64,000 nt of DNA from Gemmatimonadota bacterium (GTDB lineage: Bacteria > Gemmatimonadota > Gemmatimonadetes > Gemmatimonadales > GWC2-71-9). Below are positions 9,937-32,223 of this stretch, one piece after another. The notes under the pieces were generated by a model. The model was given only the letters and a program-made list of their open reading frames with translations, did not search any database and had not been told where the DNA came from. Each line of letters opens with the position of its first letter. Within the stretch, counting starts at the first letter, position 1. Both the position numbers and the translations under genes were made by a program. The stretch is taken from the NCBI GenBank assembly GCA_022563595.1, contig JADFNB010000015.1, forward strand, positions 10,105 to 74,104, in the 5' to 3' direction.

Positions 9937-10313
9937 CTGTCGCGTACGTCGACACGTCGTGTCTGGTCGCGATTGCGTTTCGGGAACGGGGTGGCGCAGC
10001 GCTGGTGCGGCGGCTGGAGCAGTACGACGTACTCGTATCCGCGAATCTGCTGGAGGCTGAGCTGCGCGGTGCGTTTGCGCGCGAGCAATTGCCTTTCCAG
10101 ACTGGAGCGCTCTCGTGGATCTCCTGGGTCCTCCCTGACCGTCCACTCGGCCCGGAGATCGCCCGCGCGCTCGAGGCGGGCTATCTCCGGGGCGCCGATC
10201 TGTGGCACATCGCCTGTGCGCTGTATCTGGCGGAGGATCTTGGCTCGTTCGCGTTCGTGACTCTGGACGACCGGCAGCGTGACGTTGCGGAGGCGTTGGG
10301 ACTCGAGACATAG
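9933..10313 (+). CDS. Type II toxin, PIN/VapC family
   Basis: PIN acidic residues in YVDTS, E, LRGADLWH and TLD; GTGA overlap with the antitoxin. Confidence 0.88.
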   Translation: MTVAYVDTSCLVAIAFRERGGAALVRRLEQYDVLVSANLLEAELRGAFAREQLPFQTGALSWISWVLPDRPLGPEIARALEAGYLRGADLWHIACALYLAEDLGSFAFVTLDDRQRDVAEALGLET

Positions 10314-10320
10314 CGGGTTT

Positions 10321-10366
10321 AACTGTCGACCGTCCCCTATCTCCCAACCGTCAACTGTCCCATCCC
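10321..10366. repeat. Degenerate heptamer tandem repeat
   Basis: AACTGTC GACCGTC CCCTATC tccc AACCGTC AACTGTC CCATCCC in the TA-kinase spacer. Confidence 0.4.
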
Positions 10367-10395
10367 CGGCGAAACCCCTATCTTCTGCCGGACCC

Positions 10396-12789: not shown

Positions 12790-12793
12790 TTTC

Positions 12794-16830: not shown

Positions 16831-16856
16831 TGAACCTACGGCAACAGTGCCGCGTC
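16831..16856 (+). promoter_or_regulatory. Putative ECF autoregulatory promoter (likely leaderless)
   Basis: TGAACC-N16-CGTC ends 5 nt before the sigma-factor ATG at 16862; no Shine-Dalgarno sequence. Confidence 0.6.
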
Positions 16857-16861
16857 GCTCC

Positions 16862-17464
16862 ATGACCGGCTCCCGGGATCTCCGCGAAGCGACCGATCAG
16901 CAGGTGGTCGTCTGGGCCCAGGAGGGTCACGAGTCGGCGTTCCGCGAGTTGATCCGGCGGTACCAGCGCCCGGTGTTCTCCCTGGTCTACCGCATGCTAC
17001 GCGACAAGGAGCTGGCCGAGGATCTCTCGCAGGAGACCTTTATCAAGGTCCTGAATCACATCGATTCGTACCGTCCCGAGCACAAGTTCTCGTCCTGGAT
17101 CTTCAAGATCGCGAACAACGCGGCTATCGACCATCTGCGCCGCAAAGAGCTGGACACGCTCTCGCTCGAGGGTGCCCCCGACGCCGTCACACAGGAACGG
17201 CAGGCGGCGACCGCACTGCAGATCGGCGACAGGGCCGAGTCACCGCTCGAAGAAGTCGAAGCGCGCGAACTCGGTTCTCAGATCGAGGCGGCCGTCGCGC
17301 GACTGAGGCCCGAGTACCGCGCCTGTATCATCCTGCGACACGTCGAAGGCCGCCCTTACGAGGAGATCGCCAAGATTCTCGATCTACCGCTCGGTACGGT
17401 GAAAACCTATATCCACCGGGCCCGCGGCGAACTGCGCCAGATCCTGATGCCACTGCGAGAGTGA
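16862..17464 (+). CDS. ECF RNA polymerase sigma factor (SigW/RpoE-like)
   Basis: Region 2 AEDLSQETFIK...FSSWIFKIANN..IDHLR; region 4 YEEIAKILDLPLGTVKTYIHRAR. Confidence 0.95.
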   Translation: MTGSRDLREATDQQVVVWAQEGHESAFRELIRRYQRPVFSLVYRMLRDKELAEDLSQETFIKVLNHIDSYRPEHKFSSWIFKIANNAAIDHLRRKELDTLSLEGAPDAVTQERQAATALQIGDRAESPLEEVEARELGSQIEAAVARLRPEYRACIILRHVEGRPYEEIAKILDLPLGTVKTYIHRARGELRQILMPLRE

Positions 17465-17501
17465 GCGGCAGGGCGGTACCGGTCACGACACCAGATTCCG
17501 T

Positions 17502-17527
17502 TGAAACCTGGCGACGCGCCCTCCGTA
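17502..17527 (+). promoter_or_regulatory. Putative SigW-type ECF promoter
   Basis: TGAAAC-N16-CGTA in the spacer between the sigma gene and the downstream membrane-protein genes. Confidence 0.72.
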
Positions 17528-17531
17528 GGGG

Positions 17532-18053
17532 GTGGCAGACATGAGAGATGATACGATGACACCGTACCAGCCCGAGAGCGATCCGGGCTTGGACCATGAC
17601 CTCGCTGCCCTGGAACGTTTCACTCCGAAACCGGGGTTCGAGAGCCGGGTCCTGGATTCCGTACGCCATCCCTTGCCCGCTTGGGCGCGGCGGACGCGGG
17701 ACACCCTGCGCTGGATGGTGACGGGGGTGCGCGGCTGGGTGATTCTGGTGTGCTGCTCGGCGGCCACGGCGGCCACCGTTGCACTGGCCGTCGGTGCCGG
17801 GGTCCGGTTCAGCAACTACACGTCCCGCGGCGGGGAGCTAGTACTCTCCGAGGTCATCGAGCCTGCCTCGCGCGGGGCGGCAGCCGTCGGGACGGAACTG
17901 GCAAATGAACTCTCCACATCTGTGTTGGGAGCGCTTGGGACTGCGGGAATCCCGTGGCAAGGCGTCGCGATCGCCTATGTCGTGTTGGTTGGTGTGAGCG
18001 CGCTGGCGCTACGGATCCTGACCCGGCCTCCCCAACGGAGGTTTGACGCATGA
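17532..18053 (+). CDS. Two-TM membrane protein, candidate anti-sigma factor (start uncertain: 17532, 17541 or 17556)
   Basis: Lies directly after the ECF sigma gene. Cytoplasmic N-terminus LAALERFTPKPGFESRVL resembles the anti-sigma P..F..RV segment; two hydrophobic helices. Confidence 0.65.
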   Translation: MADMRDDTMTPYQPESDPGLDHDLAALERFTPKPGFESRVLDSVRHPLPAWARRTRDTLRWMVTGVRGWVILVCCSAATAATVALAVGAGVRFSNYTSRGGELVLSEVIEPASRGAAAVGTELANELSTSVLGALGTAGIPWQGVAIAYVVLVGVSALALRILTRPPQRRFDA

Positions 18054-19336
18054 AGCGCATCATGCTCTTGGCCATGTTGGGCCTCGCTGTCTCCCTAGTG
18101 GCCACGCCTCCGGCGGCCTGCCAGGGAGCACCGGTCGTGGGCTACTCGGTCACCGCTTCCTCGAGCGAGGCGGCGGCAACATTCCAGCTGACCGACGGCA
18201 CCACACTCCGGGTGGCATTCCGCAACGGGAACGTCCTGATAGGGGATGAACGCGTCGGCCAGTATGAACCGAGCGGAGAACTCGACAACGCCTGGCGGCT
18301 TCTGCTGAGTCGCTCCGGCGACCTCTCCACCAACGAGATGGTGGCGGCGATCCGGGCTTGGAATCCCACCGGAATCGGCGAGGCCGAGGCCGCCTCGTTT
18401 GCGGCGATTGCGCAGCGGCTGCAGCTGCTCCACGCCATGCAGGCCGTCCCGGCACCGCCGGCACCACCCGACATCGCCCCAGTAGTCGCCGAAGTCGCCG
18501 AAGCCAGAGAGGCCGCCGAGGTGGCGCGCCGGGCGGTCACGGTGATCCGCAACGAACTCAGGACGACTCTGCGGGATGAGATCGGTAACCTCCGGCAGCG
18601 TGTGAGCCGTGCGCGGGCGCCGAGCAGGAGCTTTCAGGTCGACTTCGGTCCGGTCGTGCACGCTATCTCCCCCGTGCAGGCGGTGGGGGAAGGGCTGCTC
18701 GGCCTGCTCGGCGCGTTCCTCGCGCTCGGCGGTATCGCCTTCGGCGCCAGCTTCTTTGCCCGGCGCCAGCTCGACGTCGTCGCCGACACGGTCTCGACCT
18801 CGTTCGCACGGTCCTTCTTCGTCGGACTCTTCGCACAGCCGCTCCTCGTGCCGGTGCTCGGCATGACACTGGTCGGCCTGACCCTCACGGTGGTTGGCAT
18901 CCTGCTGATCCCGGTCGCGCTGATCGCGTTCCCGATCGTGCTAGCGACGGCCGTAATCGGCGGATACCTGGCGGTGGCACGTGTCGCCGGTGCGGGATGG
19001 CTGGTCCGGAAACGACAGGACTACGGGATCGAAGGACTGCCGCTGTGGAAGTCTGTGGCTTGCGGTCTGGCAATCGTTCTGGCGATCTGGCTCCCGGCGA
19101 TTCTGCTCGGCTGGGCACCGGTCGCCGGGGAGATCCTCACGTGGACGGCCGCGCTGGTGACGTGGGGACTTGCGACCACCGGGTTTGGCGCGATGATCCT
19201 CTCGCGGGGTGGGCTGCGCGGCACCTTCGGCCGCAAGTTCGCCCCCCCGCCGGTGACCCCGGACGAGCTGTTCGACAGACCCGAGACCAAGGTTTCCACC
19301 AGCGAGTGGCTGGCCGGAAAGCAGGCGACAGGATGA
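18050..19336 (+). CDS. Hypothetical membrane protein: signal peptide, periplasmic coiled region, multi-TM C-terminus
   Basis: ATGA overlap, hydrophobic N-terminus and about 5-6 C-terminal TM helices (LTVVGILLIP...GFGAMILSRGG). Confidence 0.75.
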   Translation: MKRIMLLAMLGLAVSLVATPPAACQGAPVVGYSVTASSSEAAATFQLTDGTTLRVAFRNGNVLIGDERVGQYEPSGELDNAWRLLLSRSGDLSTNEMVAAIRAWNPTGIGEAEAASFAAIAQRLQLLHAMQAVPAPPAPPDIAPVVAEVAEAREAAEVARRAVTVIRNELRTTLRDEIGNLRQRVSRARAPSRSFQVDFGPVVHAISPVQAVGEGLLGLLGAFLALGGIAFGASFFARRQLDVVADTVSTSFARSFFVGLFAQPLLVPVLGMTLVGLTLTVVGILLIPVALIAFPIVLATAVIGGYLAVARVAGAGWLVRKRQDYGIEGLPLWKSVACGLAIVLAIWLPAILLGWAPVAGEILTWTAALVTWGLATTGFGAMILSRGGLRGTFGRKFAPPPVTPDELFDRPETKVSTSEWLAGKQATG

Positions 19337-20193
19337 TCAGGCGATCGCTCTTCCTCGCGGCCGGCGTGGCGGTTGTCGCTGCCCAGATGGCATCGGCCCA
19401 GTCATACCGGACCCTGGTCGAGTCGCGCAACGTCACCGACGAGACCACCCTGCGAGTGAACATCGAGTTCGTGATCGGCGAGTTCCTGCTCGGGCCTGCC
19501 CGCAACGACGTGCTCTACCGCATGGTATTGGTCTACGACGAGGACCGCTTCGAGCCCGACGTCTCGTTCCACGACGGCCGCGATCGACTCGACATCGGCT
19601 TCTCGTGGGCGCACGGCACCGGCGTGCACGACACCGACAAGCTCCACCAGCGGTTGGATCTGGCGCTCTCGCCCGACGTGCCGCTGGATCTCCAGATCAC
19701 CTTTGGCGCCGCTGCGGGAGACATCGAACTCGGCGGCCTCTCCCTGACGGAGGCGGTGATCAAGACCGGCGCCAGCCAATCGACGATCCGATTCAGCGAG
19801 CCCAACCGCATAACCTGTGAGCGGCTCGTGTTCCAGGTGGGGGCGGCCCAGTTCGAGGCTCTACAGCTCGGGAACTCCCGTTGCCGCTCAATCGAGTTGA
19901 ACGGTGCCGTGGGCAAGATGCTGCTCGATTTCACGGGTGAATGGAGCGACGCAGTCACCACACATGCGCAAATCAAGATGGGACTCGGCAAGCTACTGCT
20001 CCGGCTACCCGAGAGCCTGGGCGTCCGTCTCGACGTCGACCGGTTCCTGGTCGGCCTGGACCGTTCGGGTTTCCTCAAGCGGGGCGGGGGCGGTGCTTAC
20101 TACTCGACGAGCTACGACACCGCCGAGCACAGGCTCACCATAGAGATCCAAGCGGCCCTGGGTACCATCGAGATCGACTGGGTGCGCGGCTAG
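19333..20193 (+). CDS. Exported beta-solenoid protein (toast-rack / LiaF-LiaG-like)
   Basis: Signal peptide ending ASA-Q; repeated 'xIxxGxGxxxLx' strands (ITFGAAAGDIEL, IKTGASQSTI, LNGAVGKMLL, IKMGLGKLLL, IQAALGTIEI). Confidence 0.7.
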   Translation: MIRRSLFLAAGVAVVAAQMASAQSYRTLVESRNVTDETTLRVNIEFVIGEFLLGPARNDVLYRMVLVYDEDRFEPDVSFHDGRDRLDIGFSWAHGTGVHDTDKLHQRLDLALSPDVPLDLQITFGAAAGDIELGGLSLTEAVIKTGASQSTIRFSEPNRITCERLVFQVGAAQFEALQLGNSRCRSIELNGAVGKMLLDFTGEWSDAVTTHAQIKMGLGKLLLRLPESLGVRLDVDRFLVGLDRSGFLKRGGGGAYYSTSYDTAEHRLTIEIQAALGTIEIDWVRG

Positions 20194-20923: not shown

Positions 20924-21331
20924 ATGTCCGACACAATTGCTTTCGAGGTAAGACTCACGCAACCGTACGAGCAGGCGGTCGAGAAGGTAACGGCTGCGCT
21001 CAAAGAGGAGGGTTTCGGGATCCTCACACGGATCGACGTCGACAAGACGCTGAAGGAGAAGATCGACGTCGATTTCCGTCCCTACGTCATCCTGGGCGCC
21101 TGTAATCCCGCACTCGCCCACCGGGCGCTCACGGCCGACGCCGCGGTCGGCATCATGCTCCCGTGTAACGTGACCGTAGAGGTGAACCCCGACGGCGACG
21201 GCTGCATAGCACGCATCGGGAATCCGGACATGATGCTCGGCGCCGGTGGATTCGATCAGAACCCGGCACTGCGGGAGGTCGCCGCCGAAGCGCGGGTACG
21301 GTTGGAGCGGGTTGCTGCCGCACTTGGTTAG
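20924..21331 (+). CDS. DUF302 domain protein
   Basis: LKEEGFGILTRID, ILGACNP and GIMLPCNV. Confidence 0.92.
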   Translation: MSDTIAFEVRLTQPYEQAVEKVTAALKEEGFGILTRIDVDKTLKEKIDVDFRPYVILGACNPALAHRALTADAAVGIMLPCNVTVEVNPDGDGCIARIGNPDMMLGAGGFDQNPALREVAAEARVRLERVAAALG

Positions 21332-21332
21332 T

Positions 21333-22490
21333 GTGAGGCTCTGCCTGCGGGCCGCCGCGCTGTCCGTCGCCCTCGTTGTCGTGACGGGCTGCGCCGGTGG
21401 GTACCGCCCCGGCACGATGGTCCCGCCTGTCTCCGCCGACGCCATCGAGCACTCTCTATTCTTGATCGGCGACGCCGGTGATCCGCGGAGCCCGGCGGAA
21501 CCCGTGCTGATGGGGCTCGAGGCACTGGCCTCGGAGCGGGCCAGCCGGAGCACCATCGTCTTCCTCGGCGACAACGTCTACGACCAAGGCATGCCTCCCT
21601 CGGACGCCCCGGACCGGCTCGAAGCCGAGCGGCGGATGACGATGCAGATGAACGCGGTGCCCCCGGGAACCCGGGCCTACTTCGTCATGGGGAACCACGA
21701 CTGGCTCCGCGGGCGTGAGGGCGGCTGGGAGGCCGTGAAACGGCAGGCGGCGTTCGTGGGACGAGCCGGCCGACCCGACATCCGGGTGTCTCCACCTGCG
21801 GGGTGTCCGGGACCAGTGGTCCGGGACCTCAGCCCCAGGCTCCGCCTCGTCCTGCTCGACACCCAGTGGTGGCTGACTTCCGGGGACAAGCCCGAAGACC
21901 CGACATCGGCCTGCGATACCGATTCGCGGGCCGAGGTCACGGCCGCGCTGCGCAGCGCCGTACGCGTGGATGAGGCTCGCCACGTTGTCGTCGTGGGCCA
22001 TCATCCGTTGAGGAGCGGCGGGGTCCACGGCGGCCGCTTCGACTGGCAGGATCACATCTTCCCGCTCACCGCGTTCAAGTCGTGGTTGTGGCTACCTTTG
22101 CCGGTCATAGGGTCGCTGTATCCCATAGTTCGCGGGTCCGGTGTCTCAGCACAGGATGTTCCTTCCGGCGCCTACCGCGAAATGCGAGATTCACTCGCCG
22201 CCGCCTTCGCAGTCTCCCCGCCGCTTGCGTACGCGGCAGGGCACGAACATAATCTCCAGGTCCTGGACGGCGGGAGCGCCCGGTATCTCTTGGTTACGGG
22301 AGCAGGTCGGTTCTACCACACCAGCAAGGTGTTCCGCCTCGAGGAGACGCGCTACGCGCGGCGGGCGGGCGGATTCATGCGCCTCGACGTCCTCACGGAC
22401 GGTCGTGTCCGGCTCGCCGTGGTCGTGGTTGACGGCGAGGGGCGGCCGACGGAAGACTACTCTCTGTGGCTCGTCCCTGAAGGAGGGTAG
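21333..22490 (+). CDS. Calcineurin-like metallophosphoesterase, predicted lipoprotein
   Basis: GTG 21333 gives a signal peptide with lipobox VTG-C. Motifs GDAG, GDNVY, GNHDW, GHHP and AGHEH. Confidence 0.88.
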   Translation: MRLCLRAAALSVALVVVTGCAGGYRPGTMVPPVSADAIEHSLFLIGDAGDPRSPAEPVLMGLEALASERASRSTIVFLGDNVYDQGMPPSDAPDRLEAERRMTMQMNAVPPGTRAYFVMGNHDWLRGREGGWEAVKRQAAFVGRAGRPDIRVSPPAGCPGPVVRDLSPRLRLVLLDTQWWLTSGDKPEDPTSACDTDSRAEVTAALRSAVRVDEARHVVVVGHHPLRSGGVHGGRFDWQDHIFPLTAFKSWLWLPLPVIGSLYPIVRGSGVSAQDVPSGAYREMRDSLAAAFAVSPPLAYAAGHEHNLQVLDGGSARYLLVTGAGRFYHTSKVFRLEETRYARRAGGFMRLDVLTDGRVRLAVVVVDGEGRPTEDYSLWLVPEGG

Positions 22491-22494
22491 CGCA

Positions 22495-25077
22495 ATGCTC
22501 GGGCTGCGTACTATAGGCCTGCTGCTTCTAGTCGCGCTCAGCGCGGCCGGCCCAGTACACGGTCAGGACCCGGCCCGGACGGCCCGCGTCACCGCCGGCG
22601 AGCACTACGATGCCGGCGGCTTTCATCGGTTCCTGTTCGGGAGTGACTACCGCCACCTGTGGCGCGCGCCGCTCGAGGTCCCGTGGCTCGACCTCGGTTC
22701 CTTTGCGGGCGGATTGACGCCGACCACGGCGGGCGGCGGATTCCAGACCAAGTCGCTGCGGTTCCGCGGAGCGAACGGACGTCTCTACGGCTTTCGCTCC
22801 GTCGACAAGGATCCCGCGGTCCTGCCGCCGGAACTCGCCGGGACGTTCATCGATGACATAGTCAGCGACCAGACCAGCGCCGCGCATCCCGCCGGCCCGG
22901 CCCTGGCGGCGCCGCTGCTCGAAGCGGCCGGCGTGCTCCACACCACGCCCCGGTTGGTTGTCCTACCTGACGATCCCGGATTGGGCCAGTTCCGCGAGCG
23001 GTTCGCCGGCACGCTCGGGTACTTCGAGGAACGCGCCCTGGTAGAGCCCGGCGCACAAACCTTCGCCGGCGCCGACGAGATCCTCGGCAGCGACGACCTC
23101 TACCCAATGATACGAGAGAGCCCCGCGCATCGGGTCGACGTCCGGAGGTTTCTCGCAGCGCGCCTGATCGACCTGCTCATCGGCGACTGGGACCGGCACC
23201 GGGGCCAATGGCAATGGGCGCGGTTCGGCACCGCGCCCGTCACCTACTGGGTGCCGATTCCGGAAGATCGGGACCAGGCTTTCGTGAGGTTCGACGGGCT
23301 CATGGTGTCGCTGGGGCGGGTAGCGGCTCCGCAGCTGCAGGTCTTCGGGGACGACTACAAGAGCATGGTCGGGCTCACCTGGAACGGCCGCGAGAGCGAT
23401 CGCCGGTTCCTGATAGAGCTGGAGAAACCGGTGTGGGATTCGGTAGCCGCCGCGGTCACGCGGCGTATCACCAACGACGTGATCGACCGAGCGGTGCGGG
23501 GCATGCCGACCGAGTACCAGGCGATCGACGGGGAGCGGATGCGCCGCGCCCTCCGGAACCGGCGGGACAGGCTGCCGCAGGCGGCCAATCGGTTCTACAG
23601 GCTGCTCATGCGGGAGGTGGACATCGAGGCCACCGACGCCGCCGAGATCGTGACGGTCGACCGGCGCGCGGACGGCAAGGTCGAGGTTAGCATAGTCGAG
23701 CGACGTGCCGGCGCATCACCGTACTTCAACCGCACCTTCCGCCCCGGTGAGACCGGCGAGCTGCGTTTCCACCTGTATGGCGGCGACGACCGCGTGGTCG
23801 TGCGCGGTCCCGGAAAAGGAATCATGCTGCGGGTGATCGGGGGAGGCACCGACGAGCTGGTGGATTCGTCCCTGGCCGGCCGGCGCTCGCGTCGCCATCA
23901 GGTGCGCCTGTACGCCACCGCGGCCGACCGCGCGATGGGACCGACACCGGTTCGGGTCGACCGCCGCCATTACTCTCCTCCGCCGAAGCGGTTCGACACG
24001 GAGCTGCCGCCGCGAGATTGGGGACACCGCTCGCTACCGATGCTGTGGGCCTCCTTCGGACCTGACGTAGGGGTCTTTCTAGGCGGCGGCGTGTTTTTCA
24101 CGCAGTACGGCTTCCGCAAGCTCCCCTATGCCTATAGGCTGCGCTTGCGCGCGGGCTGGGCTACCGGGGCCAACACCTTCCGCGTGGATTTCAAGGGAAC
24201 GTTTCACACTGTCAACTCATCGGTTCGGGGCGACGTACATGCCAGGGCGTCCGGCATCGAGGTGCTGCTCTACCACGGGCTCGGCAACGAGACCGTCCGT
24301 GACCGGGCTGATGAGTTCTTCCGCATCAATCAGGAGCAATACACCGTCGAGCCCCGCCTCGTGGTACCGTTCTCCCACCGGGTCGAAGTGAGTTTCGGAC
24401 CGAGCGCCACACTCAGCCGCACGGATTTCCAGGCCGGCCGTATCATCGCGGCATTACGGCCCTACGGGAGCGGCGGCGAGGGGCCGACATCGACAACCGG
24501 CACCTTCGCGCAGTTGGGATTCAAGATGGATTTCGCGCTCGACGCGCGGGATGTGCCTGCCAATGCCAGTCGCGGCGTTTACCTGCGCGTCGGTGGCTCT
24601 GTGTTCCCGAAGATCTGGGACGTCGAGACCACGTTCGGCGAGGCTCACGGCGAGGTCGCGACCTATCTCAGCGCCGGAGACGCCACGTTCCGTCCCACCT
24701 TGGCCTTGCGGGCGGGTGGGAAGCGCCTGTGGGGAACCTTTCCCTTCCAGGAAGCCGCTTTCATAGGGGATGCCCGAACCATACGCCTGGGACGCCAGAA
24801 CCGATACGCGGGCGACGCGGCGGTGTACGGCAACGCCGAGCTTCGGCTACGCCTGAGCCGAATCTTCCTCTTCCTGCCGGGACACATCGGGATCTTCGGG
24901 ATCGCCGACGCCGGCAGGGTCTTTCTCGAGGGAGAGTCATCCGACACGTGGCACACGGCGTTCGGCGGCGGGATCTGGATGTCCTTCGTGCAACCCGGCA
25001 ACACACTGAGCGCCGCCGTCACACGCAGTGACGACGAACGAACCGCCGTTTACTTGAGCGCCGGATTTGCGTACTGA
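22495..25077 (+). CDS. Omp85/BamA-TamA family outer-membrane protein with N-terminal atypical kinase-like domain
   Basis: AGGAGG RBS and Sec signal (VHG-Q). Kinase-like motifs GGGFQT, FRSVDK, IGDWDRH and PEDRDQAF. C-terminal amphipathic strands with NRYAGD..YGNAELR, FGIADAGRV and terminal YLSAGFAY. Confidence 0.8.
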   Translation: MLGLRTIGLLLLVALSAAGPVHGQDPARTARVTAGEHYDAGGFHRFLFGSDYRHLWRAPLEVPWLDLGSFAGGLTPTTAGGGFQTKSLRFRGANGRLYGFRSVDKDPAVLPPELAGTFIDDIVSDQTSAAHPAGPALAAPLLEAAGVLHTTPRLVVLPDDPGLGQFRERFAGTLGYFEERALVEPGAQTFAGADEILGSDDLYPMIRESPAHRVDVRRFLAARLIDLLIGDWDRHRGQWQWARFGTAPVTYWVPIPEDRDQAFVRFDGLMVSLGRVAAPQLQVFGDDYKSMVGLTWNGRESDRRFLIELEKPVWDSVAAAVTRRITNDVIDRAVRGMPTEYQAIDGERMRRALRNRRDRLPQAANRFYRLLMREVDIEATDAAEIVTVDRRADGKVEVSIVERRAGASPYFNRTFRPGETGELRFHLYGGDDRVVVRGPGKGIMLRVIGGGTDELVDSSLAGRRSRRHQVRLYATAADRAMGPTPVRVDRRHYSPPPKRFDTELPPRDWGHRSLPMLWASFGPDVGVFLGGGVFFTQYGFRKLPYAYRLRLRAGWATGANTFRVDFKGTFHTVNSSVRGDVHARASGIEVLLYHGLGNETVRDRADEFFRINQEQYTVEPRLVVPFSHRVEVSFGPSATLSRTDFQAGRIIAALRPYGSGGEGPTSTTGTFAQLGFKMDFALDARDVPANASRGVYLRVGGSVFPKIWDVETTFGEAHGEVATYLSAGDATFRPTLALRAGGKRLWGTFPFQEAAFIGDARTIRLGRQNRYAGDAAVYGNAELRLRLSRIFLFLPGHIGIFGIADAGRVFLEGESSDTWHTAFGGGIWMSFVQPGNTLSAAVTRSDDERTAVYLSAGFAY

Positions 25078-25138: not shown

Positions 25139-26842
25139 ATGCCCACGCAGGATAGCGACGTAGGTCTCGGCACGACTCCCGTGGAAGCCGAAAGGGGTGT
25201 GCGGGCGGAGAAACTCCGACCCGTCACCCCGACGATGGGGCGTAGCAGCATGTGGAGCTGGGGTGTTTTGTCGCTGCCCCCCGATCTCCTGGAACAGTCC
25301 TGCAGGCGGATCGCCATCGCCGCAATGGCTTTCGCCTCGCTGTGGGCGCTCGGGTTCGTCATGAACGAGGGCGTGGCGCGACTGTTCCCGCAGGGCATCC
25401 CTCCGGAAGGGGCCGAGGTCTGGCCGATGCCGGGCGCGCTGATTGCCGGTGTGGGTCTGGTCATGTCGCTCGCGATGGTCTTGATCGCCGCAAGGCTCCA
25501 CACGAAGCCCATTACGCTGCTGAACGTCGGGCTTTTCTACCTGGTCGCCAGCGCCCTGCTCATCGGCATCCTCAACCAGTGGACACCCCGGGTGACGCCG
25601 TTTCGGGTTTCCTGGATCTGTATCCTCGTCCTGGCCTATCCCGCGATCGTACCGAACACGCCTCTGAAGACCTTGGCGGCTACGCTGGCGGCAGCGACGA
25701 TGGACCCAGTTGGGTTCGGGATCGCGCTGGCGCGGGGTGTCCCGGTGGAGGGTACCATCACCCTCTTCTCCCTGCTGTGGACCTTCCTCCCGAACTACGC
25801 GTGCGCTGTCCTGGCGGTGGTACCGGTCCACATTATCCGCGGACTGAGCAAACAAGTGAGCCGGGCGCGTGAGCTGGGCAGCTACAAGCTGGGCGACACG
25901 ATCGGTGCAGGAGGCATGGGAGAGGTCTATCGCGCCGAGCACCGGCTGCTGGCGCGCCCGGCGGCGGTCAAGGTCATCCGTCCCCAGCTCTTGGGGGCGA
26001 GCACCGACGCGGCGGCGCGGGTCGTGCTGGAGCGGTTTCGCCGTGAGGCGGAGGCGGCGGCTCTGCTGCGCTCGCCCCACACGATCGAGCTGTATGATTT
26101 CGGCGTCGCGGATGATGGGACGTTCTATCTGGTCATGGAGTTGCTCGACGGCATAGGGCTCGAGGAACTGGTGGAGCGTTTCGGTCCGATCCCAGCCGAG
26201 CGCGCCGTCCACATCATCTTGCAGGCCTGCGAGTCGCTCGCCGAGGCCCATTCCCGCGGCCTGATGCACCGGGACATCAAACCCTCCAACATCTTCACCA
26301 ACCGTCTCGGGTTGCGCCTCGATTTCGTCAAGGTGCTCGATTTCGGTTTGGTCAAGGCTGAGGCCGGCAGCGGTTACGAGCAGACGAAGCTCACCGCGCC
26401 GGAGGTGACTACCGGGACACCGGCGTTCATGGCCCCCGAGGTAGCCCTTGGCGAGCAGACGGCCGATCACCGGCTGGACGTGTATTCGCTCGGTGCCGTG
26501 CTGTACTGGCTCCTCACCGGCCAGTTGGTGTTCGAGGCGGCCAACCCCATCAAGATGATGCACATGCACATCCAGGAACAGCCAACGCCGCCCTCCCAGC
26601 GGACGGAGCTTCCGATACCTACCGAACTCGACGCAGTCGTCCTGGCGGCCCTGGCCAAGAAACCCGACGACCGCCCTGCCGATGCCGCCGAGCTGGCCCG
26701 GCGACTCCGGCACATCGAGTTCGCCGAGCCGTGGACTGAGGAGCGGGCGCAACGGTGGTGGGACACACACCTCCCCGACTGCATGACCGCTGAAGGTCCA
26801 TGCAACAAGGGCTCGCTCGTCCCCGCCATGGCAGCCGAGTGA
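25139..26842 (+). CDS. Ser/Thr protein kinase with N-terminal multi-TM domain
   Basis: About 6 TM helices, then GAGGMGEV, AAVK, HRDIKPSN, DFG and APE. Confidence 0.93.
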   Translation: MPTQDSDVGLGTTPVEAERGVRAEKLRPVTPTMGRSSMWSWGVLSLPPDLLEQSCRRIAIAAMAFASLWALGFVMNEGVARLFPQGIPPEGAEVWPMPGALIAGVGLVMSLAMVLIAARLHTKPITLLNVGLFYLVASALLIGILNQWTPRVTPFRVSWICILVLAYPAIVPNTPLKTLAATLAAATMDPVGFGIALARGVPVEGTITLFSLLWTFLPNYACAVLAVVPVHIIRGLSKQVSRARELGSYKLGDTIGAGGMGEVYRAEHRLLARPAAVKVIRPQLLGASTDAAARVVLERFRREAEAAALLRSPHTIELYDFGVADDGTFYLVMELLDGIGLEELVERFGPIPAERAVHIILQACESLAEAHSRGLMHRDIKPSNIFTNRLGLRLDFVKVLDFGLVKAEAGSGYEQTKLTAPEVTTGTPAFMAPEVALGEQTADHRLDVYSLGAVLYWLLTGQLVFEAANPIKMMHMHIQEQPTPPSQRTELPIPTELDAVVLAALAKKPDDRPADAAELARRLRHIEFAEPWTEERAQRWWDTHLPDCMTAEGPCNKGSLVPAMAAE

Positions 26843-28281
26843 GTCTCCCGCCCATGACGATCGTTGCTCGCGGGACGCTCACCACGGCCGTTCTGCTGTC
26901 GCTGTTGGGGTCCGGGGCGCCCGTTGAGGCACAGGACACCACCGGGCCACCGACCAGCCTGGACCAGTTCAGCGAGTCGCTTCAAGCACTGTCCGGTCGG
27001 GCGGCACCGGCTGTGGTGCAGATCTTTGCGACGGGGCTCGGCCCGGTAAGCCAGGTCGGCCGCACGAGCGGCGGGGTGGGCCGCCAACGGCGCGGCGGAT
27101 CGGGGTTTCTCCTCTCAGGGGACGGGTACATCCTCACCAACGCGCACGTCGTCGAGGGATCGCGGACAGTGCTCGTGCTCTTGGCGACCCCGGCCGCGTC
27201 GGATGCGCCCGGCCGGTCGATCATCAAGCCTGTGGGCAAGCGCGTTCGCGGGCGCGTCGTCGGGGTCGACCGGGAGACGGACCTGGCGCTGATCAAGGTC
27301 GACGCGACGGGGCTCCCCTTCCTCGAGTTCGGCGATTCCGACGACCTGGCGGCAGGCCAGATCGTGCTCGCGCTCGGCAGCCCGCTCGGGCTCGAGACGT
27401 CGGTGACGCTCGGTGTGGTCAGCGCGGTCGGGCGCCAGCTACAACCTGGCAGCCCCATGGTCTACATCCAGACCGACGCGCCCATCAATCCCGGAAACAG
27501 CGGCGGTCCTCTCGTCGACACACGCGGACGGGTCGTCGGCATCAACACTCTCATTTTCTCGCAGTCGGGCGGCAGCGAGGGCGTCGGTTTCGCAGTGCCG
27601 AGCAACATAGCAGCCACCGTATTCGCGCAACTCCGCGCGCACGGACGCGTGCGCCGCGGCGTTATCGGCGCAAGCGTGCAGACGATCACTCCTAGCATCG
27701 CGACCGGCTTGCGCCTGGTACAGGAGTGGGGCGTGATCGTGAGCGACGTCACCCCGCGGTCGCCGGCCGCCGGGGCCGGCTTGCGCGTGGGTGATATCAT
27801 CGTCTCACTCGACGGCAAGCCGATGGAGAACGGGCGCCAGTTCGATGTCAACGTCTATCGTCGCCCAGCCGGCACCGTCATTGCCCTCGACGTCCGCCGC
27901 GGCATGCAGAGATTGACGCTCCGGATCCCGGTCGTGGAACGCGAGAACGACCCCAGTCGTCTAGTTGACCTCGTCACCCCGGAGCGCAATCTCGTCCGCC
28001 GGCTCGGCGTGCTCGCCGTCGATCTCAGCCCGGAGATCGCAGGCATGATGCCCTGGCTCCGGCAGCGGACCGGCGTCGTCGTGGCCGCACCCGCCGCCGA
28101 CGTAGCGCCGGTCGAGAGCGGCCTCCAGGCCGGGGACCTGATCCGGGAGATCAACGGCTCGCCGGTGACATCGCTCAGCGGATTGATCGCCACCCTCAAC
28201 CGGCTCGCTGTCGGTGACCCGGTCGTCCTCCATGTCGATCGATTCGGCCACCTCATTTACGTCGCCTTCGAGATCGAATAG
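26839..28281 (+). CDS. HtrA/DegP-family serine protease with two PDZ domains
   Basis: Triad motifs TNAHVV, DLALIK and PGNSGGPL; two GL..GD.I...G PDZ motifs; signal peptide; GTGA overlap (alternative start ATG 26854). Confidence 0.94.
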   Translation: MSLPPMTIVARGTLTTAVLLSLLGSGAPVEAQDTTGPPTSLDQFSESLQALSGRAAPAVVQIFATGLGPVSQVGRTSGGVGRQRRGGSGFLLSGDGYILTNAHVVEGSRTVLVLLATPAASDAPGRSIIKPVGKRVRGRVVGVDRETDLALIKVDATGLPFLEFGDSDDLAAGQIVLALGSPLGLETSVTLGVVSAVGRQLQPGSPMVYIQTDAPINPGNSGGPLVDTRGRVVGINTLIFSQSGGSEGVGFAVPSNIAATVFAQLRAHGRVRRGVIGASVQTITPSIATGLRLVQEWGVIVSDVTPRSPAAGAGLRVGDIIVSLDGKPMENGRQFDVNVYRRPAGTVIALDVRRGMQRLTLRIPVVERENDPSRLVDLVTPERNLVRRLGVLAVDLSPEIAGMMPWLRQRTGVVVAAPAADVAPVESGLQAGDLIREINGSPVTSLSGLIATLNRLAVGDPVVLHVDRFGHLIYVAFEIE

Positions 28282-28283
28282 CG

Positions 28284-29696
28284 ATGTATCCAGGAGAACG
28301 CCCCAGTATCATAGACCGATTCCTCCGCCTGTTCAGCGATGTTCGGGCGGGCGAGGGGGCCCAGGCGCTCCTCCTGGCCTTGAACATCTTCATGGTGCTC
28401 ACGGCCTATTCCGTCATCAAGCCGATTCGCGAGGCCTTGATCCTGGGCGAATGGTCTGCCGAAACCAAGAGCTATCTGGCAGCGGCGATGGTGGTCATCC
28501 TGGTGCCGGTGGTCCAGCTGTACGGTTGGCTGGCCGATCGTTTTCCCCGCATGCGGTTGATCAACGCCGTCACCTTGTTTTTTGTGGCGTGTCTAGTCGT
28601 CTTCTTTCTCCTGGGGCAGGCCGGCGTGCCGCTGGCGATTCCCTTCTTCATATGGGTCGGGATTTTCAGTGGTGTGATCATCGCTCAGTTTTGGTCCTTC
28701 GCGAACGATGTCTACACCAGCGATGAGGGCGAACGATTGTTCCCGATCGTGGGGTTTGGTGCATCGCTGGGCGCCGTGCTCGGGGTCGGCCTCACCCTGA
28801 CACTCGTGGAGGATCTGGGGGTCTACCAACTGATGGCTCTCGGTGCGGGCATCCTGATCCTCAGCCTGGTCATCACCAACTATGTCGATCGACGCCAGCG
28901 CAAGCGCACTGAGTCCCCCCTGCCGGTCGCGCAGACAACTGCGGAGATGCCCGCCGCCACCGGGCAGTTCCGCGCCGTCACAGGTGAGTTCAAGGCGCTG
29001 ACCGCCGAGCAGGCTGAAGCGTCTGGCAGCGGTCAGGGCGCTTTCACTTTGGTGTTCAAGACGCGCTACTTGTTGCTCCTGGCCATGATGATTCTCCTGA
29101 CCAACTGGGTCAACACGACTGGTGAGTACATCCTTGGGAGCACCGTTGTGAACGCGGCCGATGCCGCGGTGGCGAGCGGTGCGGCCGGCGGGCTGGATGA
29201 AGGGCAGTACATTGCCAGGTTCTATGCCGGCTTCGGTTTGTTCGTCAACATTCTCGGCCTCCTCATCCAGTTGTTCCTGGTGTCTCGCATCATCAAGTAT
29301 GCCGGGGTCAGGATCGCCATCCTCGTGCTGCCCCTGACGGCACTTGTCGGCTACGCCGTCCTGGCCCTGTATCCCCTCCTCAAAGTCATCCGGGTGGCCA
29401 AGACCATCGAGAACGCCACAGACTATTCTCTGCAGAACACCGTCAAGAACGTGTTATGGCTCCCGACGACCCGCGAGCAGAAATACAAGGCCAAGCAGGT
29501 CGTCGACGCCTTCTTCCATCGAGCCGGTGACGTGCTATCGGCCGCGCTCGTCTTCGTCGGCACCACATACCTCGCGCTAAAGCCCAGTGGATTTGCCATC
29601 GTTAATATCGCGTTAGTGCTGATCTGGATAGCGGTCGCGATCGCGATTGGGCGGACCTACACCTATCTCACGGAAACCGGACAGCCGCCAACCTAG
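28284..29696 (+). CDS. TLC/NTT (Npt1/Npt2-like) nucleotide translocase, MFS
   Basis: YSVIKPIREAL, FWSFANDVY...ERLFP and DYSLQNTVKNVLWLP...KYKAKQVVD...RAGD; about 12 TM. Confidence 0.85.
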   Translation: MYPGERPSIIDRFLRLFSDVRAGEGAQALLLALNIFMVLTAYSVIKPIREALILGEWSAETKSYLAAAMVVILVPVVQLYGWLADRFPRMRLINAVTLFFVACLVVFFLLGQAGVPLAIPFFIWVGIFSGVIIAQFWSFANDVYTSDEGERLFPIVGFGASLGAVLGVGLTLTLVEDLGVYQLMALGAGILILSLVITNYVDRRQRKRTESPLPVAQTTAEMPAATGQFRAVTGEFKALTAEQAEASGSGQGAFTLVFKTRYLLLLAMMILLTNWVNTTGEYILGSTVVNAADAAVASGAAGGLDEGQYIARFYAGFGLFVNILGLLIQLFLVSRIIKYAGVRIAILVLPLTALVGYAVLALYPLLKVIRVAKTIENATDYSLQNTVKNVLWLPTTREQKYKAKQVVDAFFHRAGDVLSAALVFVGTTYLALKPSGFAIVNIALVLIWIAVAIAIGRTYTYLTETGQPPT

Positions 29697-30009: not shown

Positions 30010-32223
30010 CTAGTCCGCGCCCGATTCCCGCTTCTTTCGCAGCGCCTCGAGATTGATCACGATCGACGCGCTCGATTCGAGAAGGTCGGCGAGCACTTGG
30101 TTGGCCGAGCGGCGTTCCGCGCTTTTACGGCCGACATCCTCGACAAACGGCCACAGCGCTTTGCGAATGTCGTCGGGCAACGCCGAGTCCAGATACTCCA
30201 GAGCGGTGCCACGGAGATGCTTGTCATTCGTATGCAGGCCGCGGAAGGCGACCTTGAGCGGCCGCCGGGGTAGGAAGAGCGCCAGTACGGTAAACACGTG
30301 TTCCAAGCTGCGGTCCGCGCGATCGCGGAGCACTTCGTCCATCATCGGAGACCAGGCCTCGTCATCCATCTGATCGATCAGTCGCTGGCTCTGCCACACG
30401 CCGCGATCTACCGCCACTTCCCGCAGGGCCGCGGCCTGCGCGCGCTCCCGGTCGACCACGAGGTCCGGATTCAGATCCACCAACCGGTTCAGTGCCCGTC
30501 CGCAGCGATAGCGGACCTCGAATCGCGGGTCCTCCAACCCCGCGGTGAGTCCGTCAACGGCTCGCTGCGTGGGGCATGCGGCCAGCACGAGCGGTATGCG
30601 CCGCCGAACCGCAAAGCTCTCGTCCGGATCCAACAAGTGGTCCACCAGCTGGCCGGTCGCCCGAGGCGCGATCTGCCGCAGTGCAGCTACGGCGTCCGCC
30701 GCGACCTCGTCCCAGGCAAGCAGGGGCACCACATAACCGACCAGCGGCTCGGTCAAAGGAGTCGCGAGCGCATGCCGCACGCGCGGCGGCTCGCGTGAGC
30801 GCAGTTCCGCCAGCCGGTCCAGCTCGGCGTCGAGCCGCGGTATCGACGGCGCGGGCGCCGGCCGTGCTCGCGCCGCTTCGGCCGCCGAGTCAACGCGCTC
30901 CACCTGCAGGGATTCGGTGGGATCAAACAGGGTAAGACCCAGCGCCCCGGCCGACTGCAGCATTGCCGTTCTTGTGGCCAGGTCGCGCGCCTCCGCGAGA
31001 TCGAGCTGCCCCGCTCGGGAAAGCAGGCTCCTCTCCAAGGCCTTCACGTAGCCCCGCTGGAGACCGATCGCCACGATTGCGCCCGCGATCGAGAAAGCGA
31101 TAGCTATACCGAGCAAGACCGGTCTATGCGCCACCGCAGCGATGATGGTGATCTGGACGATCGCCGCACCTACCACATCCCCCAGCCGCACGGCACCGAC
31201 ATCCACCAACATCTTGGTGGATCGTTTCTGTCGCGGTGCCAACGGCGCGAAGAGTAGCTCGTACCCCGCGCGGTAGAGACCATTCCGCGCCACGGACTCG
31301 ACTCCACGCAGCGACAAGATCATCCCGAAAACGGGGACGAAGAGCGCGACCGCCCCGCCGACGGCGACCGCGGACGGCAGCAGGGCAACCGTTCGACCTA
31401 GTCCGAGGCGTTCCAGCGAAAACCGGCTTGCAACGGCCTGCACGAGCACGGTGAGCAACGCCACGCCGGTGTAGAACACCGCGAAGAGCCGGAGGAGTTG
31501 TTCGCCTCCGCCGAATGTGGCGAACGCCTGTGCTTTGAACAGGTAGTCGACGAGGCCCTCGCTCACAGTCGTGAGGAGGACCAGTGCGACGAGCGCGCGG
31601 AGGTAGCCCGTCTTCCGGATCAGTGTGACACCCGACGACCCCAGACCCTGAGCGTCGGGCGCGCGCGTGCCGCGTCCGCTGCTTGCGCCGCTCACCACCC
31701 CGAGCACCAACCATGCGCATGCGAAATGCAACCCCGCCAGGATCGGCAGCATCGAGGTGACCGAGGGCAGCAGCACCGCCGCCCGTTCGGCCAGGAGACC
31801 GCCGAGCAGCCCGCCCACCGTCCCACCGGCCGCTATGCGGCCGATCGCCTTCTTGGCGGTGCGGGGATCGAACCTCTCGTTGATGATCGACCAGAACCCG
31901 GAAATGAGGACGGCGCCGAGCCCGGAGAAATGGATGTACACCAGCACCGACACCGGGCCGCGGAAGGAGGCCACGAAGAACCACTCTACGAGTAGGAGCA
32001 CGGCACTGGACGCGAACGCTATCGGCACCAGGCGGCCCGGGCCCACTCGGGTCAACGCGCGCGTCGCGACGAACACCAGCAGGACTGAAACGACCGCTGC
32101 CCCGACCACCATCCGGGGCAGCATTGATACATCGAAGCTCGACAGGAAGAGCGCGTTGCGGGTCGCCTTCGCCGCCATCTGGAAGGCGATCATCACCGTC
32201 GCCATCACCGTAGCGGCGGTCAC
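30010..32223 (-). CDS. TLC/NTT-like MFS transporter fused to a HEAT-repeat C-terminal domain
   Basis: AKATRNALFL, FWSIINERFDPRTAKK and YELLFAPL...KRSTKMLVD...RLGD. HEAT-like repeats LLDPDESFAVRR and LEDPRFEVRYRCGRAL. Confidence 0.82.
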   Translation of the reverse strand: MTAATVMATVMIAFQMAAKATRNALFLSSFDVSMLPRMVVGAAVVSVLLVFVATRALTRVGPGRLVPIAFASSAVLLLVEWFFVASFRGPVSVLVYIHFSGLGAVLISGFWSIINERFDPRTAKKAIGRIAAGGTVGGLLGGLLAERAAVLLPSVTSMLPILAGLHFACAWLVLGVVSGASSGRGTRAPDAQGLGSSGVTLIRKTGYLRALVALVLLTTVSEGLVDYLFKAQAFATFGGGEQLLRLFAVFYTGVALLTVLVQAVASRFSLERLGLGRTVALLPSAVAVGGAVALFVPVFGMILSLRGVESVARNGLYRAGYELLFAPLAPRQKRSTKMLVDVGAVRLGDVVGAAIVQITIIAAVAHRPVLLGIAIAFSIAGAIVAIGLQRGYVKALERSLLSRAGQLDLAEARDLATRTAMLQSAGALGLTLFDPTESLQVERVDSAAEAARARPAPAPSIPRLDAELDRLAELRSREPPRVRHALATPLTEPLVGYVVPLLAWDEVAADAVAALRQIAPRATGQLVDHLLDPDESFAVRRRIPLVLAACPTQRAVDGLTAGLEDPRFEVRYRCGRALNRLVDLNPDLVVDRERAQAAALREVAVDRGVWQSQRLIDQMDDEAWSPMMDEVLRDRADRSLEHVFTVLALFLPRRPLKVAFRGLHTNDKHLRGTALEYLDSALPDDIRKALWPFVEDVGRKSAERRSANQVLADLLESSASIVINLEALRKKRESGAD

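Follow-up and report, generated by a model that had tools for sequence, protein, structure and literature searches.

The window, a stretch of 64,000 nucleotides from a Gemmatimonadota bacterium, contains a gene (hereafter the kinase-barrel) in which a signal peptide is followed by a kinase-like domain, a β-rich middle domain and a 16-strand Omp85 barrel (Table 1). The structural model places this predicted three-domain arrangement confidently (pTM 0.91). Residue Q24, the first after the signal peptide, is present in 102/120 homologues, and 103 of 107 kinase-first proteins carry an N-terminal hydrophobic stretch. A loose pattern of the kinase motif series matches 1 of 2712 open frames of at least 300 aa in the same genome, the kinase-barrel gene itself; the pattern was built from this gene and therefore only shows that chance matches are rare. 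No Pfam family was found for the 860-aa protein at E up to 1, and neither a PDB search with the single sequence nor a search of a phage collection gave a match. Scanning genome contigs with the single sequence yielded just 2 loci. The ESM Atlas returned only unnamed clusters (0.94–0.95), with CotH and HipA clusters at 0.77–0.78 as leads.

Table 1 The kinase-barrel gene, its domains and its neighbours (positions in the window)
Feature	Position	Strand	Basis or remark
Purple-acid-phosphatase (PAP)-type metallophosphoesterase, predicted lipoprotein	21246..22490	+	PF00149 E 5.8e-5, lipobox
Kinase-barrel gene	22495..25077	+	Single ORF, 860 aa
Sec-type signal peptide, residues 1-23	22495..22563	+	By eye and hydropathy
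Atypical protein-kinase-like domain, residues 24-372	22564..23610	+	Model, fold searches, conservation
β-rich middle domain, ~120 aa	23611..23964	+	Model secondary structure, consensus
16-strand Omp85-type β-barrel, aromatic last residue	24025..25077	+	Profile, Foldseek, VIA
Membrane-anchored Hanks-type Ser/Thr kinase	25139..26842	+	PF00069; ~5 hydrophobic segments
DegP/HtrA protease	26800..28281	+	Present in 8/81 Gemmatimonadota loci
ATP/ADP translocase (NTT/TLC), candidate ATP exporter	28284..29696	+	PF03219 E 1.4e-11
NTT-HEAT fusion transporter	30010..32223	-	PF03219 E 6e-4 and PF13646 E 2.7e-4, both weak

The stop codon of the phosphatase gene lies 4 nt upstream of the kinase-barrel start, and a GGAGG overlaps the last phosphatase codons. 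Its lipobox Cys is at 21390 and its start is probably at 21324 or 21333. Across 60 homologues, the ligand positions of five motifs (DxG, GDxxY, GNH(D/E), VxxH and GHxH, which we take to be the PAP metal-ligand set) are kept in 55–60 of 60, and a lipobox is found by pattern in 32/37 stand-alone Gemmatimonadota copies. While a stop separates the phosphatase and kinase genes in the window and its close relatives, the two are fused in loci L001 and L002 and in 22/46 Bacteroidota copies.

 Both window transporters are multi-pass membrane proteins with a PF03219 match, which places them in the NTT/TLC family, and their architectures are the same as those of NTT and NTT-HEAT proteins described in free-living bacteria (PMC5381601). 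That study assigns no function to the fusion proteins, and the words “export”, “periplasm” and “kinase” are absent from it; it reports that some family members transport NAD or other nucleotides, and that one failed to transport. In the window two genes lie between the first NTT and the barrel gene, and the NTT-HEAT gene is convergent. Across loci, the NTT lies on the kinase’s strand in 17/17 loci, the NTT-HEAT gene is co-oriented with the kinase in 13/15, and two NTT genes flank the kinase-barrel gene in 12. A close orthologue of the NTT occurs in 31 genomes, 27 of which also carry the kinase.

Fold and catalytic residues

The original prediction described a series of kinase motifs ahead of the barrel, and these lie where it placed them: GGGFQT from 22732 (G80), DRH at 23191–23199 (D233–H235), and PIPEDRDQAF ending at 23283. 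Its assignment to the branch of PI3/PI4 kinases, HipA, Fam20 and CotH is borne out by the predicted structure (AlphaFold, pLDDT 95.7), which has a protein-kinase-like fold. Foldseek matches the model to CtkA (3akk, top match; E 1.9e-5), PI4KIIα (2.9e-4), CotH (3.4e-4) and HipA (6e-4), with Fam20 also among the structural matches; VIA aligns it with CotH at Z 15.1 (rmsd 4.0, 247 residues aligned) and with PI4KIIα at Z 14.7 (rmsd 4.9, 268 aligned).

The elements of the domain are a Gly loop (G80–G82), R101 and K105 in β3, an invariant D125, hinge residue E178, a catalytic loop D233-R234-H235 with Q238, and a metal-binding D258-R259-D260. Both D233 and D258 are conserved in 120/120 close homologues and in 121/129 and 124/129, respectively, of the kinase domains from two phyla; on both points that could have overturned it, fold and Asp conservation, the original prediction holds. 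In these domains the two catalytic Asp, the His and the Gly loop are each kept at >90%. Because five core positions (R/K101, D233, Q/N238, D258 and D260) are intact in 117/129 domains, including the window copy, the protein is, on its residues, probably an enzyme; the suggestion that it might be a divergent pseudokinase is thus unlikely for the window copy. The core is damaged in 12/129 copies, and is intact in 79/81 domains with a partner gene nearby versus 38/48 without one.

Three canonical positions deviate: Arg at β3, no αC Glu, and Gln for Asn. The last two had been anticipated, and correctly so, with Q238 found in 121/129 domains and the expected αC position lacking a conserved Glu. R101 and K105 are kept in 125/129 and 123/129 domains; no conserved acidic column occurs at the expected helix position, and E143 is acidic in only 62%. 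D125 (127/129; preceding helix) may stand in for the αC Glu. We note that residue 257 was considered as donor-specific and rejected, since its distribution (Arg in 33/40 DUF4956-type, 19/23 PycTM-type and 4/18 NTT-type domains) is confounded with ancestry.

The further proposal that the kinase domain sits on the barrel in place of POTRA domains holds in part: no POTRA was found, but the kinase domain is not attached directly, as the conserved middle domain lies between. This domain is found in 124/129 kinase ORFs and has in the model ~11 short strands and at most one short helix; by secondary structure it is not POTRA. Its consensus carries the motifs GGDD and GGxGxD, Gly/Asp motifs that presumably resemble RTX/β-roll repeats. 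A search of the ESM Atlas with the middle domain gave no match, and the fold search, which barely covered this domain, did not identify its fold. The barrel, modeled with 16 strands, matches NF047779 (E 6.6e-14, under its curated cut-off) and BamA by both profile (E 5e-11) and Foldseek (E 4e-11), and is closest in VIA to Sam50, TamA and BamA (Z 24–25). By profile and model, the protein is a member of the Omp85 superfamily. It does not classify as a BamA/TamA assembly factor, as the region before the barrel consists of a kinase fold and an all-β domain, with no POTRA and no Pfam match.

Genes that travel with the kinase-barrel

Of the genomes searched, 123/301 from Bacteroidota, in which it is highly conserved and mostly present once, and 86/251 from Gemmatimonadota contain a kinase-barrel. 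It forms the constant core of a module and travels with the PAP-type lipoprotein (38/81 Gemmatimonadota and 21/41 Bacteroidota loci; this and all other co-occurrence counts are inflated by kinship) and usually with one of three types of partner in the inner membrane: ATP/ADP translocases, as in the window, DUF4956 with CYTH::PPK1, or HD-PycTM.

Among the 81 Gemmatimonadota loci, 18 carry NTT, 38 carry DUF4956 and none carries both; PPK1 or CYTH occurs in 21, 20 of them with DUF4956 and 0 with NTT. Similarly, 79 metagenome loci divide without overlap into NTT (9), DUF4956 (22), HD-PycTM (4) and none of these (44). The exclusivity of NTT and DUF4956 does not represent many independent events, with only 1–2 changes on the kinase tree. 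In Bacteroidota, PycTM is found in 108/123 kinase-positive versus 17/178 kinase-negative genomes. Homology between PycTM and DUF4956 was considered and is unsupported (E 0.11), and our literature search found no report of either exporting a donor.

Relation to known systems

The kinase-barrel architecture is already on record as a split form of the “Metallo” Omp85 subfamily (Heinz and Lithgow 2014, PMC4104836). The homologue P0304 (L079) is UniRef B3QW52, which Table S1 of that study assigns to Metallo and which has a CtkA match in its Table S3. Both systems place a CtkA-like domain before the barrel (top Foldseek match 3akk), but PF00149 is in the same polypeptide there and in a separate lipoprotein gene in the window. 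This split does not exclude membership of the subfamily as PMC4104836 drew it, because the cluster in that study includes kinase-first rows, labeled “truncated protein” in Table S3. That table lists the CtkA-like domain, while the main text speaks of metalloproteases with no mention of a kinase; this supplement is the sole earlier mention of the kinase domain that we found. Kinase-first proteins with their own signal peptide are the main Gemmatimonadota form (78/83 ORFs), and the constant core is the kinase-barrel, not PF00149. The structures d1xzw, d2qfr and d1ute are, we presume, purple acid phosphatases. They are given as matches in Table S3 (PMC4104836). Titles and abstracts of CC-licensed PMC articles and bioRxiv preprints yielded none describing a kinase in the “Metallo” Omp85 family or its partners. 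What is new here is the gene context, namely the core, the phosphatase and three alternative inner-membrane partners. The original prediction had overlooked the middle domain, the phosphatase lipoprotein, the nearby ATP/ADP translocases and the Table S3 entry.

CotH is the best structural match of the kinase domain, tied with PI4KII and CtkA, and its C-lobe motifs align. In a weak profile alignment (E 0.0015–0.01, probability <7%), D233, Q238 and D258/D260 fall on the conserved D, N and DxD columns of CotH, as given in PMC12189002. According to PMC7112168, cotH, a polyphosphate polymerase gene and DUF4956 are contiguous next to Gram-positive pel genes. The window domain nevertheless differs from CotH in its low identity (12%), its DRHxxQ and PxDRD motifs, its β3 Arg and its barrel fusion, and the family profile PF08757 gave no match in the kinase-barrel (Pfam, E up to 1). 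PI4KII, CtkA, HipA/HipT and Fam20 belong to the same fold branch (Z 10–15, 10–16% identity) but differ from the kinase-barrel in its bacterial envelope setting. Fam20 kinases act outside the cytoplasm on imported ATP. PlpD, as described in PMC11116518, has an enzyme-fold domain in the periplasm beneath an Omp85 barrel, an arrangement that is predicted for the kinase-barrel, but contains POTRA and a lipase-type fold.

Location and possible function

The kinase domain sits N-terminal to strand 1 of the barrel and, by inference, is likely periplasmic. PlpD has its patatin domain at the equivalent place before the barrel, and this domain was shown to be periplasmic (PMC11116518). A lipobox start is found in 13/18 fused Bacteroidota forms examined, and the ten residues after the lipobox Cys contain no K-(D/E)2 or Q-A-(D/E)2, the surface-export signal according to PMC5080379.

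Our best reading, to which we give an even chance, is a phosphotransferase that works in the periplasm on a donor exported to it. The domain order, the conserved catalytic residues, the gene linkage and the co-occurrence behind this reading are observed, and the folds are predicted. The Omp85 barrel would hold a CotH/PI4K-type kinase-fold domain, likely on the periplasmic side, which would move phosphate from translocase-exported ATP to an acceptor whose probable site is the outer membrane. The phosphatase encoded next to it, a predicted lipoprotein, would strip that phosphate off. The translocases would swap cytoplasmic ATP for the ADP released by the kinase, and a high cytoplasmic ATP/ADP ratio favors such an exchange of ATP outward and ADP inward. 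Where other lineages have DUF4956 with CYTH::PPK1, or HD-PycTM, these may supply the donor (polyphosphate or a nucleotide); the donor-export model needs such unrelated exporters because NTT is not universal, with any match to the window’s NTT in only 5/123 kinase-positive Bacteroidota genomes. As acceptor, we lean slightly toward a lipid head group, or a glycan or small molecule at or passing the barrel, rather than a protein. Several observations count against this reading: the three deviating kinase positions, the 35/98 Gemmatimonadota matches with neither partner within 10 kb, the location of NTT elsewhere in the genome in several of the window’s closest relatives (genera g9 and g14), HD-PycTM on the kinase’s strand in only 7/21 loci, and the two genes intervening in the window. 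Against outward flux in particular, the NTTs characterized from parasites and plastids import nucleotides (PMC5381601).

That known direction would suit a second, unlikely explanation, scavenging with inward flux. Here polyphosphate, nucleotides or organophosphates would enter through the barrel, the phosphatase and an SdiA-regulated/phytase-like propeller would free phosphate, NTT would import nucleotide, PPK1 would store phosphate, and the kinase-fold domain would trap substrates or work in reverse (donor + ADP → ATP). The frequency of the phosphatase is consistent with this, as are the propeller (28/81 Gemmatimonadota and 14/41 Bacteroidota loci) and PPK1 (nearby in 20 and 6 of these loci). 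However, the recurrent neighbor families identified in the first 62 loci, where not every family was named, include no phosphate-uptake or TonB/Sus genes, and the phosphatase is missing from many loci whose kinase core stays intact. In addition, ATP would be imported against the cytoplasmic ratio, which requires a strong external donor.

Envelope signaling or defense appears rather improbable. The kinase/phosphatase pair would then mark envelope state, and the partners (class III cyclase, HD-PycTM, NTT-HEAT and the membrane Ser/Thr kinase) would relay or execute a cyclic-nucleotide response with no donor supply. Bacteroidota loci do contain cyclase (11/41) and HD-PycTM (19/41), PycTM carries a Pycsar-effector annotation, and cNMP-binding domains frequently accompany NTT-HEAT proteins (PMC5381601). 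Such a role leaves the phosphate donor unexplained, and the DUF4956/PPK1 package lacks a cyclase in most loci. Defense islands are expected to be patchy, whereas 123/301 genomes have the module in highly conserved form and mostly once.

Highly improbable is a type V-like surface display or secretion through its own barrel, with targets and ATP outside, of the kind the original prediction had allowed. CtkA, the top Foldseek match, is a secreted kinase, and the middle domain has presumably RTX-like Gly/Asp motifs; export is nonetheless unsupported, since fused forms, lipid-anchored at the N terminus, would need to bring ~850 folded residues through the barrel, the module is tightly linked to inner-membrane transporters, and the equivalent model was disproved for PlpD (PMC11116518). 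Least credible, a catalytically dead nucleotide-binding or scaffold domain replacing POTRA in an assembly factor would fit the three substitutions, the damaged copies and a barrel nearest TamA, Sam50 and BamA, but not the conservation of the Asp pair, His and Gly loop across two phyla or the phosphate-handling partners.

The architecture alone is no discovery, having been in the 2014 supplementary table (PMC4104836), but the “metalloprotease” label of these Omp85 proteins, repeated still in 2024 papers, is corrected here to a kinase-barrel with optional phosphatase. Cultured genera, including Flavobacterium, Pedobacter and Hymenobacter, are among the sources of the kinase-barrel, and direct testing is therefore possible. 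The periplasm is usually described as devoid of ATP, so that a kinase with a conserved active site held under the outer membrane must receive its donor by some route; three candidates for it, all open to testing, emerge from the gene context.

More broadly, we tentatively suggest, at somewhat less than even confidence, that a cycle dedicated to phosphorylation in the envelope operates in two large Gram-negative phyla, with a barrel-held kinase, a lipoprotein phosphatase and interchangeable donor exporters: ATP would leave via outward NTT, polyphosphate via a VTC-like DUF4956/CYTH::PPK1, and a nucleotide via HD-PycTM. If true, such a cycle would mean usable ATP in the periplasm and a role for some NTTs of free-living bacteria, would suggest a donor source for exported CotH-type kinases, and would make most Bacteroidota “Pycsar effector” genes parts of the kinase-barrel system.

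Domains, predicted fold and prior description

Translation of the kinase-barrel gene gives an 860-residue protein, and re-reading the ORF placed every kinase motif of the original prediction at its claimed coordinates. A Pfam scan of this protein returned no match, while the NCBIfam Omp85 model matches residues 676-859 with a score under its cut-off. Residues 25-382 (95 sequences in the alignment, pLDDT 95.7) and 24-860 (83 sequences, pLDDT 94.0, pTM 0.91) were modelled with AlphaFold, and the models contain three parts: a kinase-like domain, an all-beta domain and a 16-strand barrel. The longer model has no POTRA domain, as had been claimed. The predicted fold of the first part supports its reading as a kinase: Foldseek ranks CtkA, PI4KIIalpha, CotH, HipA and Fam20 at the top, and CotH (VIA Z 15.1), PI4KIIalpha (14.7) and CtkA (14.3) are tied. 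The middle domain, some 120 residues long and bearing the motifs GGDD and GGxGxD, is present in 124/129 kinase ORFs and received no fold assignment from an Atlas search or a fold search. The barrel resembles Sam50, TamA and BamA (Z 24-25); in the window copy the loop-6 consensus RG reads R-L-G, a one-residue insertion.

In Bacteroidota loci (L001, L002) the upstream phosphoesterase is fused to the kinase-barrel, a form that Heinz and Lithgow classed in 2014 as the 'Metallo' subfamily of Omp85 proteins (PMC4104836). The main text of that paper labels these proteins metalloproteases, a label repeated in 2024 by PMC11358297 and PMC11116518. Its Table S3 has a CtkA-like domain column, placed between phosphoesterase and barrel, with 62 c3akj entries (confidence 99.6-99.8 in all 29 rows examined), and tags kinase-first forms 'truncated protein'; row B3QW52 is identical to one of our homologues. 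The words 'kinase' and 'CtkA' are absent from the main text; the fold assignment is thus already in print, though unremarked. We found no functional study of the family in CC-licensed PMC/bioRxiv titles and abstracts. The window gene is a split member of a known, misnamed and uncharacterised family.

Conservation and distribution

Homologues form 2770 clusters at 50% identity (E up to 0.001). The gene is single-copy in its own genome, its close homologues carry source names that indicate Gemmatimonadales, and matches occur in 22/41 relatives (genome G016 included), 86/251 own-phylum genomes (G385 included) and 123/301 Bacteroidota genomes. Across 129 ORFs the architectures are kinase-middle-barrel (97), phosphatase-fused (22) and others (10), and the kinase with its barrel is the constant core. 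Barrel-less forms of this kinase (L103, L107, L108) comprise 423-residue proteins anchored in the membrane at the N-terminus and, in one genome, three lipoprotein-like copies lying side by side.

The 129 aligned domains come from 122 loci, 81 of them in Gemmatimonadota (the window included) and 41 in Bacteroidota; these loci are a non-random sample mostly picked from the best genome-search matches. Conserved positions are R101 (125 domains), K105 (123), D125 (127), H235 (119) and D260 (125), together with both aspartates of the proposed signature, D233 (121) and D258 (124); the five-position catalytic core is intact in 117. The Gln read in place of Asn is likewise retained (Q238, 121), and the expected alpha-C helix lacks a conserved Glu, in agreement with the original prediction; R101 might instead pair with the invariant D125, one helix earlier. 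Profile alignment against CotH (29 sequences), though weak (E 0.0015-0.01), puts D233, Q238 and D258/D260 on conserved CotH columns, and CotH is described as retaining equivalents of PKA D166, N171 and D184 (PMC12189002). Since the catalytic residues are kept at 30-50% overall identity, the alignment argues for an enzyme. The gene is real and conserved, and its product is probably catalytic.

Damaged cores occur mainly where no partner is nearby (10/48, versus 2/81 with a partner); the two found near a partner are each a second copy adjoining an intact one. Divergent copies in L109, L110, L111, L041 and L042 have lost catalytic residues and have no partners nearby. A Parabacteroides record (L286) holds a relative at 20.6% identity.

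Partner genes

Features of the window and of homologous loci (L-numbers)
Feature	Location	Strand	Remark
Two tandem Hanks-type Ser/Thr kinase genes	10279-15400		TPR repeats in first
Sigma-factor group	16847-20193		ECF-type sigma factor (identified by sequence), probable anti-sigma, membrane protein, toast-rack/LiaF-like protein (weak Pfam matches); conserved upstream in same genus
Predicted phosphatase lipoprotein	21246-22490		Stop 4 nt before kinase-barrel start codon
Kinase-barrel	22495-25077	+	Loop 6 at 24775-24800
Membrane Ser/Thr kinase	25139-26842	+
DegP	26800-28281	+
ATP/ADP translocase (NTT)	28284-29696	+
NTT-HEAT	30010-32223	-	Convergent
Second, shorter Omp85 barrel	L023:15198-16730; L024:13670-15061		The two same-genus relatives; directly before NTT gene, where the window has none
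HD-PycTM	L076:6086-7267; L095:6889-8085		Examples
Barrel-less kinases	L103:9339-10610; L107:9382-10653; L108:8126-13151
Parabacteroides relative	L286:8872-11331

All co-occurrence statistics are raw counts that ignore kinship, and locus-level counts exclude the unpublished genomes G016, G385 and G503. Among the 81 Gemmatimonadota loci, NTT is found in 18, DUF4956 in 38 and both in none; PPK1 or CYTH::PPK1 occurs in 21, of which 20 have DUF4956 and none NTT, while phosphatase occurs in 38 and propeller in 28. In 12 loci the two NTT genes flank the kinase-barrel gene. From the genome tables, 98 kinase matches out of 119 were typed, once 21 rows with weak or fragmentary matches had been set aside; within 10 kb they show NTT 18 (G385 included), DUF4956 45 (list including G503), both 0 and neither 35. 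A close NTT orthologue occurs in 31 genomes, 27 of them with the kinase (G385 included; cut-off set after scores were known). Packages never overlap in 79 metagenome loci, 44 of which, many of them short, carry none. On the kinase tree NTT-type kinases nest among DUF4956-type ones and the alternation requires 1-2 changes; it therefore represents about one replacement event.

Neither package was seen in the 41 Bacteroidota loci, where HD-PycTM (19), propeller (14), class III cyclase (11) and PPK1 (6) occur. PycTM is found in 108/123 kinase-positive versus 17/178 other Bacteroidota genomes (phi 0.78, uncorrected for kinship), in only 2 of the ten weakest kinase matches, and 108/125 PycTM-positive genomes have the kinase. 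Two recurrent neighbour families, of ~790 residues (L095, L099, L102, L104, L105, L106) and ~315 residues (L089, L092, L093, L095, L099), were each scanned through a single member, which matched nothing in Pfam.

Probable location and proposed phosphate supply

A hydrophobic N-terminal stretch is present in 103/107 kinase-first proteins. The stand-alone phosphatase retains all five purple-acid-phosphatase motifs and has a lipobox in 32/37 Gemmatimonadota copies; by eye, a lipobox opens 13 of 18 fused Bacteroidota forms examined (a script reached the same total, 13, but called two wrongly and missed two others). In the ten residues that follow the Cys, none of these forms showed the surface-export signal that the abstract of PMC5080379 describes. 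Held by a lipid anchor on one side and a barrel on the other, and given the precedent of PlpD, a patatin-like Omp85 whose enzyme domain was shown to be periplasmic (PMC11116518), the kinase domain is likely periplasmic.

Three unrelated inner-membrane proteins replace each other beside an exported kinase; the simplest account is that each would feed it its phosphate donor and the phosphatase would reverse the mark, a proposal we rate about as likely as not. In the window, the NTT pair would pass ATP outward and ADP back; in DUF4956 lineages polyphosphate or ATP is a plausible donor, and in Gram-positive pel loci cotH is reported to adjoin a DUF4956 of the same kind and a polyphosphate polymerase (PMC7112168). 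The phosphatase would then remove the phosphate. A lipid or glycan acceptor is slightly favoured by the kinase's placement beneath the barrel and by neighbouring phosphatases for small molecules. Against donor supply, the NTT/DUF4956 alternation amounts to about a single event, HD-PycTM shares the kinase strand in only 7/21 loci, the window NTT is matched in only 5/123 kinase-positive Bacteroidota genomes, and direct comparison detects no relatedness between PycTM and DUF4956.

Characterised parasite and plastid NTTs take up nucleotides, which counts against export, and NAD is transported by some members of the family (PMC5381601). Inward scavenging is rather unlikely. Signalling or defence, to which one HD-PycTM neighbour named 'Pycsar system effector' by NCBI would point, appears improbable, and many HD-PycTM proteins may not be anti-phage effectors. 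Display of the kinase at the surface, which its barrel might allow, is very improbable. A dead scaffold, despite the damaged copies, is highly improbable beside the retained catalytic residues.

The interest of the kinase-barrel family lies in this question of donor supply, which its gene context makes testable.
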